This document shows, piece by piece, positions 1-8,013 of a DNA stretch of 64,000 nt (positions within the stretch are counted from its first letter, which is position 1; each line of letters starts with the position of its first letter). This DNA comes from Psilocybe cubensis (taxonomy: Eukaryota). Below the pieces are notes generated by a model. That model had not been told where the DNA came from and did no database searches. It saw nothing but the letters and a program-made list of their open reading frames with translations. The position numbers were made by a program, and so were the translations under genes. The stretch covers positions 1,922,001-1,986,000 of the forward strand of contig CM038998.1 of the NCBI GenBank assembly GCA_017499595.2. Direction: 5' to 3'.

Positions 1-1320
1 AGGCGGTGAGTCAACGTGTCTCTGACGCATCTGCTAGATATTCAAAATATTTTATGGTAGCTCGAGGAAAAGAAGAAATTGGACCAGCTTCGCAAAGAAA
101 AAGAGGAAGAACGTCAGCTCCAAGAACTTCAGAGACTCCAAGAAGAACAGACAGGCAAGAAACGTACCGAAAAGTTGGAATGGATGTATGCAACTCCCGC
201 GACTGGAAGTAATCAAAATCCAAATGATTTAGAGGATTATCTCCTGGGAAAGAAACGGGTCGACAAAATCTTGACCGGAGACGAGAATGACAAGGTAGTC
301 AGACTTCTTCGTCCTTGTAATATGATAAATCTCATTCTGTGTTAGGTTGGAGCATCCCATAAAAACTTCATTGCCGTTCAAAACGCCAATACTTCTCGCG
401 ACATTGCTGCCAAAATTAGAGAAGACCCATTATTGGCTATTAAACAGCAAGAACAGGCTGCGTATCAAGCACTCTTATCCAATCCTCTCCGCCTGGCAAA
501 GATGCAGAAGGAACTAGGAGTTAAGCCCAAGAAAGACAAAAAGGAAAAGAAGAGGGCAAAAGAGGAACGAAGGCGACTGAGACATGAACATAAGCACGGG
601 CGCTCGGGTTCGCGTAGTCCGAGAAGAGTTGACAGAGACAGATCGCCGCTCTCAGACGATTACCATTCCTCGAAACATACTCGAAGCCCACGTCGCCGTT
701 CACGTTCACGTTCACCCTCATCTTACCGCCGGCGTGACGATAACTATTCTGAAAAACCCCGGAGGTATAGCCCCGAGGTTGAACGAGGGCGAAGCAGAAG
801 CAGAAGCAGAAGTCCCCGACCTCGTCGAAGAGACGACTCAGAAAAACGCTATCGCAGCGGTCGATCGCCGTCTGTCGAGCGTTATAACTCACGACAAAAT
901 GGCAGGCATTATCGCCAGTCATCGCCATCTCGATATAATGCTTCTGTCAAGCGAGATCGTACCCACAGTCCGCGACCCAGGAGTCCGCCTCCTAAACGCA
1001 TTCGTTCTGGACGTTCACCCTCTCCTACCAGCATTCCTCCGCCTCGAGCATCTAGTAACAAGTTTGACGAAGATCGGGCAGCTCGGCTTGCTGCTATGTC
1101 CGCTAATGCCACAGCGATGTCTGAAGACAGACAAAAACGCCTGGCAGCTCTGCTGGAGAAAGAGAAAGCTGAATTAGAAGCCGATGAGCAAGCCAGAGCC
1201 AGGTCAAAGGGTATGTCTGGGTATTTGAGTCAGGAACAGAAACGAGTGTTCGGTGGGTTGGGAGGACTGGAGGATAGGATCAAGAGGGGACGAGGCGGCA
1301 TGGTTGTTGATGCGGACTAA
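1..1320 (+). CDS. CWC25: Pre-mRNA splicing factor CWC25 (5' end outside window; exons 61-294 and 346-1320)
   Basis: Spliced translation [24 protein letters not shown]...KLEWMY...[10 protein letters not shown]...[20 protein letters not shown], then an RS-rich tail; GT-AG introns 6-60 and 295-345. Confidence 0.9.
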
Positions 1321-1573
1321 AGATGAACATATGTATTGTTATAATACTTTTTCTGTAAGTACTGGCGCTTCAAATCGTGTCAAAATCCAATGCTAAGGTG
1401 AACGTGTAGTGATTGTCGTTCTATGCTCTCGCTGTGGCGTGGACATGTATTTGTATCTGTAATTCCTACCGGCCCGTTGAATTATACTTTATAATCTCCG
1501 CCGCTACTTTCTTTCTTTAAGTACAACTTGTGCTCAAAGGTACGACCCTACCTTCCGCTCTACTCTAACTGTG

Positions 1574-3608
1574 ATGCCTCCCCGTCGCGCGCCGTCTCTC
1601 GTGTCAGTCACACAGTCAAGGGCCCCGAGCCCTAACCCCCCTGAAGAGGACGAGGTATGCATGTCTAGTGTGAAGGCTCTCGGGTTCCACATAAGCAGTT
1701 TCGTTTTCTCCAGGTCCTGTTCTTTGATACAGTCGATGAACTCCAACAACACGTAATTTTCCCCCAGAAAACACCATATATGCGTGTCTAACTGACGTGT
1801 TTTCAAGGGAATCAATATGCAGGATATCTTGAAACTCAAGGTGGAATTTCCTCAGCAATTTGTAGCATCATAAACTAATATATCTGTGCATAGTCTGCCT
1901 CCATCAATACAGTTTCTGGGGTTAACATGACTACTCGTCGCCAAATGTTAAAGATTAAGGTCATTTGGCCGCATATATTCACAGTCATCATGGATTGTTG
2001 AACCTATCAATAGGGAATGTCAGAAGCCAAAGTCGAAAAAATTAAGGTATTTGCAACCTTACTTCTTTATATCTGCTGAATGATTACGTTCTGAACAGGA
2101 GGCAGCACATAAAATTCTGGTTTGATCTATCCTTTGAATTTTTGGTAGTTTTCTCCGGTTTTCAAATTTTCAATATAGGGTTCGTCATTTGCCACTGGCG
2201 TTGAAGTGCAAGAAAAGCGCAAAAGAGTAAATATTATTAGCACCGGCAGTAAACTGGTGGATGGTATTTTGGGAGGTATGCATATACTCTCTCAAATTAT
2301 TGGGAGTGTCTAACAGGTGAGCGTCCACTCAGGTGGTTTGATGTCCCAATCCATATCAGAAGGTAATTTGGATATTATGACCTATTAGTAAAACCCCTAT
2401 GCTAATACCGTATACAAAGTATATGGCGAATTCCGTACTGGAAAGACTCAACTTGCTCACACCATGAGTGTGGTTGCTCAGCTTCCGGTTGAGCTTGGTG
2501 GGGCCTCTGGGAAAGTATGAATTAGCCTTGTGAACATTGTCTTACGATTAATGTTTTCACCAGGTCGCATATATAGACACAGAAGGTAGTATCCAGTACA
2601 TTTAGCTACGCCATCGCTAAAAGGAGTTTAATACAATCCAGGGACTTTTCGACCGGACAGAATTAGATCAATTGCTGATAGGTTTGGCGTCGATGGAAAT
2701 ATGGCTCTCGAAAATATCCTATATGGTGTGTAGCTCTCACCATATAGCTAACGCGCGTTATTTGATTGTTTTATAGCCCGTGCCTTTAATAGCGAACATC
2801 AGGAAAGTATAAATTCGTCAATTCTCTCCTACAAAATGCCAACGGGCAAGTTCTCTAGATGGAACTCATCAATGAGTGTTCACTACGATTCGCAGAAGAT
2901 AAAGACTTTCGCCTTCTCGTAAATTTATTGGATACTAAAAAAGTCATAAATGCTGAGCTTTTTGCAAGATTGTGGACAGCATTATGGCGCTCTTTCGCGT
3001 CGATTATTCCGGAAGAGGAGAATTGAGTGAGCGGCAGCAAAAAGTAACATATAACTTGGAGTTTATGTTATATTTTATTACTTACACTTTAAATTTAGCT
3101 CGCACAGGTAAGTATCCGCAAAGATTATTCGAAAGTTGCAAATTTCTTACTATATGCGTATCAGATGTTGTCGAAGCTCACTAAGCTTGCCGAGGAGTAT
3201 AATGTCATGGTTTTCTCTCTGTTTTCGGCTTCAAAATTCTAACTGTAACTGGCAGATTTGTATCCTCCTCACGAACCAAGTACAGTGTAAGTACAAGGGA
3301 TCGTCGTTTACTCAGACTTCAGTGCTTAAGTGTTTAAAAAGCGGACCCTGGTGCCACAATGACATTTGTGGCAGGAGGTGCATTAAAACCGATCGGGGGT
3401 CACATTTTGTCCCACGCATCTGCTACTAGATTGTTTCTTCGCAAAGGTCTGTCTAAGATTCAGATGGCATTGAAGCCGGTCTCCCAGGCTTACACACTCC
3501 CACATAGGTCGAGCAGAGGAACGAGTTGCCAAACTTGTTGATAGCCCCGACAGACCCGAAAGCGAGGCGTCCTACAAGTTAGACGAAGGAGGGTGGGCTG
3601 ATGTCTGA
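1574..3608 (+). CDS. DMC1: Meiotic recombinase DMC1/LIM15 (19 exons, ~348 aa)
   Basis: Hand-spliced: Walker [24 protein letters not shown], Walker [39 protein letters not shown]; exon lengths sum to 1047 nt. [15 protein letters not shown] and GGHILSH favour DMC1 over RAD51. Confidence 0.93.
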
Positions 3609-3955
3609 AACTCGGTGCCGTGCTGATTGATCTTTTCACCAACTTGCTCGGCGCCTATGTTATTCTATTAAGTTTGAAGCAAGGACCAATGTGTACCGGT
3701 GGATCCCAGTTTAGGTGTCCACTTGGCTACCACGTTCGCGATGTACATTATCAAGAAACATGAATCCATCTAAATTTGGAGCACCGCTTGACAGATACAA
3801 ATTGTACATATGGATGCTCCAGAATGTGCACATGGCGAATGTCAACTTATCAGTTATTATTAGGACCCTGCGCATGTTGTATAGAAGTCTGGCAACATAA
3901 AATGCGCTGTCGATTTGCGAGCATCTGAGTACGTCCTACTCTACTCTACTCCAAG

Positions 3956-5169
3956 ATGGTCAAGCCCACTCGATTGGCAGCAATCTTATTCTGCGGCTTC
4001 GGTGTTGTCGTCAGTGGCGGGTTGGCGGGAGATGCCTTGATCCCAAATACATTTCCAGACTTGACATCATGCCTTTCTGAAACCTCCTTTTTCTCGTGCG
4101 AGAATACGACGGCAATTAAAAATACTTGCTGCTCACCGACTCCTGGTGGACTGGTCTTACAAACCCAATTCTGGGATACATTCACTGGTTTCGAAAGACA
4201 AGGCCAAAAACTTCCGAAGGGGAGCTGGACTATACACGGTTTATGGCCTGATAATTGTGACAGGTGTGTGTCCCGGCTGTGAAGCTATGCCCTATGTGTT
4301 GAAAGTGTAATTGGAGCTCTTTTGACTCCTATTGCGATCTATCACGTCAATTTGATCGTGTACCTTCGCCTGCCACGCTACCTGATGGCACGCCAGTACC
4401 ACCTTACAAAGGTCCAGGCGTTGACACCTTTATTAAAAGCTTCGGAAGAGAAGACCTTCTGGATTTTAGTGAGCGTTGCATTTACAATTATAGATGGTAA
4501 ACGACTTACTTACATAGTACCCAAGTGAATAAATATTGGGTGGCTCAGGGATCAACCAACGCAGATTTTTGGGCACATGAAGTATGTTCTAAATTGCATT
4601 CAGTGTTAGTTTAAAACTGATGACGGAACCAGTTCTCGAAACACGCAACTTGTACCTCAACATTTGACGTTGCATGCTACGGCCCCAAATACAAAAAGCA
4701 CCAGGATGTTGTGGATTTCTTTGATGCAGTCATAAGAGCATTTCACCATTTCCCGACTTTCGATATGCTTGCAGCGTACGTATTAGCTGTTATGAGGATC
4801 AATACCATCGTTCATGGGATACTTTCACAGTGCTGGTATCACGCCATCTAACAGAACGACTTATACGTTGTCACAGCTTCAGACAGCCATCAAGATCCAA
4901 ACCGGCAGCATACCATTTTTCGGATGCACAAACAACGGTACTGTTCTTTCGGAGGTCTGGTACTTCAATCACGTTTTTGGAACGGTGAGTCTGTGCACAG
5001 CTTGTGTTATGTTTCTGGTCATAACGCGACGTTATGTCAATTTGACCATCAGGAACAATTTGGAACCTACAAAACGCTTGATTCTACGACACCTTCAAGC
5101 TGCTCTAGCAACTTACCCATTAGATACCTTGAGCGCACACCCACCTCGGAACATGAAGTTCGTCGATAG
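3956..5169 (+). CDS. Secreted ribonuclease T2 family protein
   Basis: Signal-peptide-like N-terminus; CAS I WTIHGLWPDNCD; CAS II FWAHE|FSKHATC across an intron; Cys-rich. Confidence 0.93.
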
Positions 5170-5220
5170 TTATGAGTTGGGTTAGTTGATTGTGAATTGG
5201 TTGTGCCAATCCAAGTTCAA

Positions 5221-5365
5221 ACGCGTCGTTCGGGAGCAATAGTAATTAGTTAATTGACGCGACCCACGTGATATACGCGACGCGAATTGAACCAAATAAA
5301 GAATAACAGTTGGTCGTGAATGTTTTTGGTTCGAGTTTACGGACAACACTGTTTCTCTTCCGCGT
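5221..5365. promoter_or_regulatory. Cluster of MCB-like ACGCG cores plus a CACGTG E-box upstream of the sirtuin
   Basis: ACGCGT 5221-5226, ACGCG 5257-5261, 5275-5279 and 5280-5284, CGCGT 5361-5365; CACGTG 5265-5270. Confidence 0.5.
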
Positions 5366-5371
5366 CAAAAA

Positions 5372-7146
5372 ATGACTGTCACATTGGACTTGGAATCCGC
5401 TCAAACTGATGCTCAAACACGTAGGAGTCTCTCTGACATCTCACTTGCCGTTGCAAAAGGAAAGAAAATCGTTGTTGTTACTGGTGCGGGTATCTCTTGC
5501 TCCTGTGGTATTCCTGTACGTTGCCATCCCATCCGTTTACCAGTAAAGCACCGAACTATCTCTAGGACTTCCGCTCATCTGACGGCCTTTATGCCATGGT
5601 TAAAGAACAATACCCAGACGTCGTTTTGAAAGGCCGTGACCTTTTTGATGCTTCTCTGTTTCGCGATGCCACATCCACAGCTGTATTTTATACCTTCATC
5701 TCCCAACTCAAACGGTCCATCGATAAAGCAGAGCCCACCCAAACACATCAATTTATCAAGATCCTGGACTCGAAAAAGAAACTTTTACGATCCTACACAC
5801 AGAATATCGATGGGTTGGAAGCCCGGCTTGGTCTATTGGGGTCCTCGTGCCATGAAGCAAAGTCTAACGGCAAAAGCAAGACTAAAATTCGCACGAAGGA
5901 TGTTCGTAATGTTCAACTCCATGGAGACATTCACCGTGTGCGATGTGTGGCGTGTTCTGCAGAATTTCCTTGCGAAGAAAAGCATCTTGTAGTATTCGAG
6001 CAAGGGAATGCACCAGAGTGCCCCGAATGTTTGCTACGTTGTATGTTCGAATTTTCAGTTTGCTAGTATAAGCTTCTTAATTTCCTTGCTCTAGCTGAGG
6101 CCAGGGCCGCAAGGTCAGCCCGTCCTATCCGCGTTGGCACTTTGCGCCCTGGAATTGTTTTGTACGACGAATCACACCCACTTGGGGACGACATTGGCGC
6201 CATTCATACTTTCGATCTCGGTCGTAAACCAGACATGCTCATTATCATGGGAACTTCACTGAAAGTACACGGGCTGAAGAAACTTGTAAAGGACTTTGCC
6301 AGAACTATCCATTCGTCCACCACCTCTTCTACAGCGTCGAGTTCCAAGAAACCTTTCAAAGTCATTTTCGTTAACAAGACAGCACCTGGTGCTGAATGGT
6401 CGGATATTATTGACTATCACATCTCTGGGGAAACAGATAGATGGACGAGCAAAGTAATTGAAGACTGGAAAAAGATGAGACCAGCCGACTGGGAGATTCA
6501 ACAAACTCTGATAGAAAATGAATGCGACACTTCAATGACAAATGGGCTTAAACTTGGAAAATCTCTTCTGTCGACCAAAGTGAAGACCAAAAAGGCAGCT
6601 TCCGGGCGAGAAAATATTCCCATTTTACCCCCCGACTTGACACAAAATGTACCTACTCGAAGCGAAAACTTGAAGCCTGTCCCTCCTCTCTCTCCCAGTA
6701 AACGTCAGCAAAAATCCTGCCACTACAACGATGTGGAATCGAGTCCCTCAAAGCGCCAGACATTGTCCGTTAACCGAAATGTAATACCTCAAGAAGAGCG
6801 GAAAATGCTTTTTGCAGAAGCTACGAATAAATCTTCTGTGATTGCCAAAGATCCCAGGGAATTGTCGCAGATGGACATCTCACTATGCGATTTGCGCCCA
6901 CCGAGCAGATCTCGTAAAACTTCGACAAAAGATCGAAATGTGAAGAGCGTCGAAACATCAGCGATGGACATCAGCAAGCTTGACTTGTCAATGCACGATG
7001 CTTCGATATTGTTATCTCCGACCAAAGTACCATCCAAAGCCAAACGTCCTGTAAAGCAGCATACAGTAACTTCAAGACCTGTCCGACGGTCCGCCAATGT
7101 TGGTGCAGGCAAGCGTGTCTCAAGGAAGCGGCCAGAAGTTGTATGA
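5372..7146 (+). CDS. NAD-dependent deacetylase, sirtuin of HST3/HST4 type, with long basic disordered C-terminus
   Basis: GAGISCSCGIP|DFRSSDGLY, YTQNIDGLE, QLHGDI, CxxC...CPEC zinc motif, RPGIVLYDE, MGTSLKVHG. Confidence 0.88.
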
Positions 7147-7337
7147 TGTTTTGGTTTCTTCCCTTGGTCAGTGTTGTATTTCTTTATGCTCTCGCTGTTG
7201 AGATGCATTGTAAATTATTTCTTTTGTCTATTTGTGTCGTATTGTGGATTCCTCTGTGCATTCCAAATAATCGATTAAAGTAAAAGTGGACTAGTCGTTA
7301 GCAAAAAATACGTGAGCAAGATAAAGTGGACGGGTTT

Positions 7338-8013
7338 CTAATCAGTAATAAGTTCAGAAACACTCCAATCCTCAAAGCTGCCATCAGGAAGGTATCGTCG
7401 GATAATGAGTGGGATTTTGCGTTGGGAAAGTTCTTTAATGGCAATTTGCAGAGCATCTGTTTCGCCATCTAGTGGGACAAGAACAGGAGCGTTCATACTT
7501 ATAAAAAGGAGATTCAGACCATGGTACATATTGTGATTAAAGTACACGAACCTGATTTGCAGCGCTCTTGTGCCTAATATCCGTGCTCGTTCGTATTTTG
7601 TTAGATATGGCGTCGTTATACGAATTTTGTTGGGTTGACGCTCTCCAGAGATTCCAGCACCACCATTTGTGTCATCTCCATTGGCCATTTCTTGGTCACC
7701 GTCGGCCCCATGGGCACCGCCATGGGCTGCATCTTCGCCCAAAGGCATACCATCTTCGCCTACCTCCGCATTTTCACCGTCTTGCTCATTCGCGAGAAGG
7801 TCATAGCCTTCATCCTACGAGGGCAGATATATAATAAGGGCAAGAATGCGTCGAGATACCAGAATAACATACAAAGGCTCCATCGTTATACCTATGCAAG
7901 TTAGGTCAGAACAAGACTGGCGGAGGCATCTCGAATTCGAAGACATACCCTGGCCCTGCTTCGTAGTCATAGTCATCACCGGCACGTCCTCCATCGTAAC
8001 CATCATCAGACAT
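7338..8013 (-). CDS. RPB6: RNA polymerase I/II/III shared subunit RPB6 (RPABC2)
   Basis: Acidic N-terminus; [31 protein letters not shown]...[22 protein letters not shown]. Confidence 0.96.

Follow-up and report, generated by a model that had tools for sequence, protein, structure and literature searches.

Can a well-known meiotic gene still make its protein when one of its introns begins with GA, where the canonical dinucleotide is GT? The question is raised by the window, a stretch of 64,000 nucleotides of the Psilocybe cubensis genome (GenBank assembly GCA_017499595.2, contig CM038998.1, positions 1,922,001 to 1,986,000 of the forward strand), which carries the recombinase gene DMC1 near its start. 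All positions below are counted from the first letter of the window. The sequence-only reading of this DNA had claimed that DMC1 requires a GA-AG intron and had put forward three interpretations: a splicing switch keeping the gene unproductive outside meiosis, a sequencing error, or a sterile allele. We weigh these against RNA contigs, genomic reads from other strains, the gene models of related fungi and the known natural GA donors.

The DMC1 gene

The gene is made of many short exons separated by introns of 49-61 nt. The parts of the gene model that matter here, apart from intron 12 itself, are the following.

1574-3609, + strand: DMC1 coding sequence, split by 18 introns into 19 exons and encoding 348 aa, with the stop codon TGA at 3607-3609; joints taken from the RNA contig of run X10
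2564-2585, + strand: micro-exon 10, 22 nt; 17 letters between the two sides of joint 2517->2640
2777-2802, + strand: exon 12, 26 nt, encoding ..ARAFNSEHQ and ending in CAG; joints 2724->2776 and 2800->2857
2859-2918, + strand: exon 13, 60 nt, starting ATG GAA CTC (MELINE...)
3099-3107, + strand: micro-exon 15, 9 nt, encoding LAQ; X10 and X11 each have CTCGCA between the two sides of joint 3043->3162
3204-3255, + strand: intron 16, 52 nt, donor aat/GTCATG, matching 2/7 consensus positions (the weakest, jointly with intron 3)

The frame of 348 aa is open throughout and contains the Walker A motif GEFRTGKT. Its translation is 90.8 % identical to model P0093 over 348 aa, 89.8 % identical (gaps included) to the Psilocybe cyanescens model P0041, and 80-91 % identical to fungal proteins named dmc1 among the matches listed. 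A protein search with 3338-3460 kept 303 of 320 candidates at E <= 0.001, and many Agaricomycete DMC1 proteins are among the 120 matches listed. The Pfam Rad51 family (PF08423) is matched by the relatives P0041 and P0121. When the single exon 3344-3451 was compared with PDB, the eight best distinct sequences were DMC1 (E 1e-9 to 4e-9) and RAD51 chains appeared from 5.5e-6 only, out of 49 distinct sequences matching at E <= 1. Judged by these similarities, the gene is a full-length DMC1, nearer to DMC1 than to RAD51.

The exon structure comes from RNA. Among the 15 sequencing runs found, 12 hold part of the gene, and four of them (X6, X10, X11 and X14) were compared over 1400-3800. A contig of X10 (record 2, 1240 nt, depth 48.4) spans 1509-3736 and lacks every one of the 18 introns, and we therefore treat X10 as derived from RNA. 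Leaving aside intron 12, its joints comprise 12 listed GT..AG joints and two double joints that bridge the micro-exons at 2564-2585 and 3099-3107. Intron 16 is the sole intron whose joint is missing from the X10 joint listing, and its bounds were fixed by length: placed at 3204-3255, it makes the predicted spliced length of 1509-3736 equal to that of the contig, 1240 nt in both cases. The earlier description of the other 17 DMC1 introns as GT-AG is thus borne out by the X10 joints together with the length-fixed intron 16. None of the tiny exons at 2099-2119 (21 nt), 2564-2585 (22 nt) and 3099-3107 (9 nt) is missing from the RNA contig.

Intron 12 is removed exactly from the mRNA

The features of intron 12 and its surroundings are these.

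2803-2858, + strand: intron 12, 56 nt, GA...AG, phase 0, 39 % G+C; excised exactly in the X10 RNA contig
2800-2808, + strand: 5' splice site cag/GAAAGT, in agreement with the consensus at 8/9 positions, the sole deviation being at +2 (A2804)
2804, + strand: A at intron position +2, T in canonical introns; found in the window, the X14 raw reads and the X6 contig
2807-2808, + strand: GT at +5/+6 of the donor hexamer; its use would truncate the product, and the joint is absent from the X10 contigs (contigs drop rare forms)
2849-2850, + strand: upstream AG, a possible alternative acceptor; no such joint among the RNA contigs
2857-2858, + strand: AG acceptor in use, from the X10 contig joint

The 5' boundary reads CATCAG/GAAAGTATAAATT at 2797-2815, where exon 12 ends AGC GAA CAT CAG, and the 3' boundary reads CAAGTTCTCTAG/ATGGAAC, ending at 2865, where the intron closes with TCTCTAG. 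In X10 the joint 2800->2857 skips 56 nt, and two letters fit on either side of it. There are thus three equivalent cuts, namely 2801-2856 (AG..CT), 2802-2857 (GG..TA) and 2803-2858 (GA..AG). None of them starts with GT, and only the cut 2803-2858 ends in AG, which gives the joint 2802^2859. The segment is thus lost from the mRNA exactly and in frame in one X10 contig, as a U2-type GA-AG intron would be. The letters are as the sequence-only reading had them, and the need for a GA-AG intron at 2803-2858 that it deduced is now supported by an exact joint in RNA. Intron 12 is real, is excised correctly and yields a full-length 348-aa Dmc1 mRNA.

Every other way of processing this region is predicted to break the protein. 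The computed proteins are cut short, to 212-266 aa, whether the intron is read through or GT2807 is joined to one or the other of the two AGs close by. GT2807 joined to AG2858 is computed to shift the frame and to stop after ...NSEHQENGTHQ (215 aa), and joined to AG2850 it is computed to end in ...NSEHQEIL followed by a stop (212 aa). The claim of a 'competing GT' at 2807 therefore stands as far as these broken products go, but the dinucleotide is no special decoy, because a GT at +5/+6 exists in every GTAAGT donor. Neither a retained nor a cryptic form of intron 12 was assembled in X10, where the depth of the bin is that of the exon alone; contigs, naturally, drop rare forms. The second RNA run, X11, begins at 2863, downstream of the intron 12 junction, and the junction 2802^2859 is read from one RNA contig, a kind of data that hides rare isoforms. 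The letters of the intron offer little else that is distinctive: a strict YTRAY branch motif is missing from intron 12, which is one of 9 among the 18 introns without it, and no unusual RNA fold was found around intron 12 (z = +0.77; 151 of 200 shuffled sequences had folds no worse than that of the real one).

The A at +2 is in the DNA of several strains

A single deviating letter in an assembly might be a sequencing error, and this had been one of the interpretations proposed. X14 consists of raw genomic reads, 547 of which aligned, with a depth of 14.6+12.4 (~27x) in the bin 2777-2857. Differences in X14 were listed from 5 % of reads upward; 14 places were listed, none of them between 2694 and 2957. 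The raw-read check at 2804 thus shows no T and no difference at all from the window. The X6 contig covers 1901-3800 with five differing letters, each of which falls at another listed place, so that A2804 is kept there too. The A at +2 is thus found in genomic DNA, both in raw reads and in a contig, and the error interpretation is rejected. Counting the window, A2804 is in at least three independent data sets (two of three coded organism labels).

These data sets are not copies of one strain. X14 shows ten fixed departures from the window over the aligned stretch, and X14 and X6 share five fixed differences from it in the coding region (1703, 1890 or 1900, 2957, 3250 and 3379). Because of these shared and further fixed differences, we regard X14 and X6 as haplotypes independent of the window. 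X14 is heterozygous at 1413 (14/29 reads) and at 2559 (22/44 reads), as expected for a dikaryon, and is an independent strain, probably with two nuclei. In intron 18, the X6 contig lacks 6 nt at 3456, and so do 12 of 16 reads of X14. X10 has private synonymous changes at 2448 and 2694 and hence is not the window strain. Its mRNA combines the two haplotype groups as a mosaic: it agrees with the window at 1900, 2110 and 3379 but with X14 at 3661. As both groups in this mosaic have A, parsimony gives X10 A2804 as well, and it is very doubtful that the X10 strain carries T at this position. The exon variants among strains comprise four synonymous changes and one non-synonymous (S54A), and such an excess fits a gene under constraint. 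The A2804 allele is common to several strains of the species.

Donor strength and a possible mechanism

How does the donor compare with its neighbours in the gene? Donors were scored against the published consensus AG/GTAAGT at the seven positions outside +1/+2. Intron 12 scores 7/7, and the median of the other 17 donors is 4/7 (one at 7/7, two at 5/7, seven at 4/7, five at 3/7 and two at 2/7). With 8/9 donor positions in agreement and an AG at its 3' end, the intron fits the major spliceosome; the GAAAGT donor is unlike the U12-type donor motif. We consider it very probable that intron 12 is a genuine U2-type intron with a GA donor, in which the change at +2 is tolerated and removal is exact, giving full-length Dmc1: a rare exception of a known kind.

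Such an intron could work as follows. Most likely, a single base change at +2 struck a donor that was otherwise perfect with respect to the consensus (cag/G-AAGT), and splicing would tolerate it, since U1 and U6 find every other position that they read intact. U1, and later U6, would then pair with the donor in the normal register and so place the cut before G2803. Mutagenesis in yeast and mammals has shown that A at +2 chiefly slows the second splicing step, and by analogy splicing of intron 12 may be somewhat inefficient. No tissue-specific gating of the intron would be involved. The gene models of relatives suggest that the GA is of recent origin.

Gene models of relatives and of P. cubensis

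The relatives' set comprises the 44 models of >= 200 aa from the 120 matches listed of 303. The exon 12/13 junction (..NSEHQMELINE..) is unbroken in 26 of them: 20 are NCBI genome annotations, including those of Psilocybe cyanescens and P. cf. subviscida, and six are jgi/lgn entries that are possibly transcripts. Ab initio predictors usually take only GT or GC donors, and for this reason the donor at this place is probably an ordinary one in the annotated species, unless the intron is missing there. In four of the 18 other models exon 12 is replaced by unrelated residues before MELINE (P0067, P0091, P0097 and P0105, from Pisolithus tinctorius, Lentinula raphanica, Mycena albidolilacea and Marasmius crinis-equi); the remaining ones skip the exon 12 region or lack it. 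The bypass in these four species may reflect failure to predict a tiny exon, or a non-canonical donor there too. A search with 2752-2919 for predicted proteins reading on from exon 12 into the intron gave one candidate and none that scored. A metagenome scan for NSEHQME or YGE[FY]RTGK matched 594 stretches, 514 of which were confirmed. The 80 retained of these 514 are unbroken over ~850-1050 nt (intronless genes or transcripts) and mostly 45-64 % identical; being without introns, they can give no view of intron 12.

The public model of the species itself illustrates the consequences of the GA donor for annotation. A protein search with exon 1 gave one match among 15 candidates, P0121, a dmc1 protein of Psilocybe cubensis with 193 aa. 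Up to residue 166, where exon 9 ends, it matches the window protein without a difference; exons 10-14 are then left out, and the 9-nt micro-exon and exon 16 follow directly before the model runs into intron 16. Its tail is 100 % identical to window 3162-3239. P0121 reaches only positions 1-63 of the 244 in the Pfam Rad51 profile, and most of the ATPase core is gone. This detour is of the kind that predictors make when a GA donor is impassable: DMC1 is mis-modelled because predictors that take only GT or GC donors cannot pass the GA. Comparative studies of meiotic genes could thus wrongly score DMC1 of P. cubensis as defective. The correct gene has 19 exons and encodes 348 aa, which is the main practical result of this work. 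The locus also provides a GA-AG intron that is natural, verified and part of a well-known meiotic gene, and a simple substrate for understanding how the fungal spliceosome tolerates A at +2.

Intron 16 and the neighbouring genes

If any DMC1 intron is spliced inefficiently or conditionally, the one with evidence for it is intron 16. It is retained in a low-depth contig of X11, record 5, which is unbroken over 3202-3286 and yet lacks introns 17 and 18, and it is also retained in the public model P0121. The product of this retention is computed to be truncated at 282 aa.

The upstream neighbour, at 61-1320 on the + strand, is a two-exon gene for the pre-mRNA splicing factor CWC25 (Pfam PF12542, E 1e-11 and 9e-11). 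Its RNA contig ends at 1501 and the DMC1 contig begins at 1509, so that the two transcription units seem almost abutting, with the proviso that contigs cannot show true ends. The downstream gene, at ~3956-5000 on the + strand, reads ..WTIHGLWPDNCD.., which we take to be the active-site motif of RNase T2; a 39-aa piece of it (4146-4262) gave no match in Pfam. Among the matches listed, a Rad51 domain and a ribonuclease T2 domain are joined in one model, P0089 of Agrocybe chaxingu, which suggests the same order of DMC1 and RNase T2 genes in that species. Rfam, run on 1-8000 and on the whole 64-kb window, gave no family at gathering score.

Alternative explanations

One might speculate that the GA donor is a deliberately weak site, productive only in basidia, for example through a U1-associated factor such as the Nam8/TIA-1 orthologue, and that elsewhere the transcript is left unspliced, or spliced at GT2807, and degraded. 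There is a precedent in budding yeast, where Mer1 and Nam8 gate meiotic introns with non-consensus donors (PMC3082912); the role of Mer1 had been stated correctly in the sequence-only reading. A review of Agaricomycete development describes the Nam8 orthologue as highest in meiotic tissue, and its authors put forward meiosis-specific splicing in basidia as a hypothesis (PMC10282164). Gating would also be in keeping with the fact that every alternative product is truncated, and with the depth of the DMC1 contig relative to the neighbouring upstream gene, which is ~0.5 in X10 and 0.05-0.07 in X11 (~7- to 10-fold, contig depth being a poor measure of expression). Yet, this gap between X10 and X11 fits plain transcriptional control. 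The sole contig over intron 12 is fully spliced, with no retained form assembled, and the only retention seen is that of intron 16, which is canonical. The yeast sites are degenerate at several positions, whereas the donor of intron 12, apart from +2, agrees with the consensus as well as any in the gene. Moreover, a chance GA hit is plausible, given ~35 such sites in an Agaricomycete genome with no functional enrichment among the genes concerned, or ~0.7 % per gene of this kind (PMC11590231). We thus regard meiosis-gated splicing of intron 12 as unlikely. The narrower proposal of a conserved, selected site, limited at the second splicing step and yielding product in basidia alone, with their high level of the meiotically induced Nam8/TIA-1 orthologue, strikes us as decidedly unlikely; if true, basidiomycetes would have their own counterpart of the meiotic splicing control known from yeast, with the recombinase itself as its target. 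On present evidence, intron 12 does not reveal a new regulatory mechanism.

A2804 could be a null allele that disables DMC1 in the window strain, X14 and X6, and the strain behind the X10 mRNA could have an ordinary GT instead. Since mRNA lacks the intron, the letter of X10 at 2804 is indeed not observed, and the private changes at 2448 and 2694 mark X10 as a different strain. But A2804 is in both divergent haplotype groups, of which X10 is a mosaic, and X14 has no second letter at 2804 though it is heterozygous at 1413 and 2559. Nor is there any other lesion in the gene, whose exon variants are four synonymous changes against one non-synonymous. Mushroom strains propagated by spores depend on meiosis, and this general consideration also speaks against a null allele. 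The earlier proposal of a sterile allele thus becomes very improbable in view of a full-length, correctly joined mRNA and an otherwise intact gene, with the base of X10 at 2804 assigned by parsimony only. Alternatively, the joint itself could have been made by template switching of the reverse transcriptase or by contig assembly. Two letters (AG) are common to both sides of the joint, and template switching has been named among the sources of apparent GA-AG sites (PMC7072748). However, a 2-nt repeat is very short for template switching, and the joint restores the conserved ..NSEHQMELINE.. that is unbroken in 26 of the 44 relatives' models. It also keeps the 348-aa frame open within a contig that has 17 ordinary splices, and an artefact is in our view extremely unlikely. 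A GA donor spliced exactly by the major spliceosome remains our preferred explanation of these data.

Frequency of GA donors and comparison with known systems

The statement that rare GA-AG introns occur in fungi, made in the sequence-only reading, holds: the manually curated annotation of Ganoderma lingzhi, also an Agaricomycete, has 35 GA-AG sites, or 0.038 % (PMC11590231). In that study, the genes with non-canonical sites show no functional enrichment, and automatic models broke where such sites were not recognised, the worked example being AT-AC (PMC11590231). At the Ganoderma rate, 18 introns at 0.038 % would give a chance of about 0.7 % for a GA donor in a gene like this one. A GA donor in some gene of every genome is thus rare, yet expected. 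Human introns have 14 GA donors among 222,263. In plants the share is ~0.01 % (PMC10668435). Literature searches gave no match for Psilocybe cubensis DMC1, and those on GA-AG introns in fungi gave none about DMC1, judged by title and abstract.

The Mer1/Nam8 introns of Saccharomyces cerevisiae resemble our case in combining a meiotic gene with a non-consensus donor, but DMC1 is missing from the targets listed in the abstract of that study (PMC3082912), and its donor in P. cubensis deviates at +2 only. The GA donor of FGFR is used efficiently by the major spliceosome and has a GT within a few bases (PMC7072748). There, however, the GA acts as an alternative donor and needs a canonical site 6 nt upstream (PMC7072748), whereas in DMC1 the nearby GT lies downstream, inside the hexamer, and the GA is the only productive site.

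In Eurytemora affinis as well as in Oikopleura dioica, GA donors come with an obligate AG at the exon end and an A at +3 (PMC5714493, PMC7072748). Both letters accompany the GA donor of DMC1. The GA/GG introns of these animals are constitutive, are needed for the full-length protein and break automatic models (PMC5714493, PMC7072748). Yet, they make up 3-12 % of introns and reflect a genome-wide shift in donor recognition (PMC5714493, PMC7072748), in contrast to 1 intron of 18 in DMC1 and to the ~0.04 % that would be expected by analogy.

The GA-AG introns of Ganoderma lingzhi are of the same fungal class and have the same dinucleotides, scattered and rare as here (PMC11590231). That study gives counts and a validated random sample, with no DMC1 case in the passages concerned (PMC11590231). 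Intron 12 of SYMRK in Trema orientalis is also a single-base, lineage-specific GA donor in a conserved gene (PMC10668435). It differs in being a plant intron, in deriving from an ancestral GC and in having its function established by genetics (PMC10668435), whereas the function of DMC1 is deduced from a correct mRNA. The Trema donor had been suspected of disabling its gene, and the gene proved fully functional (PMC10668435).
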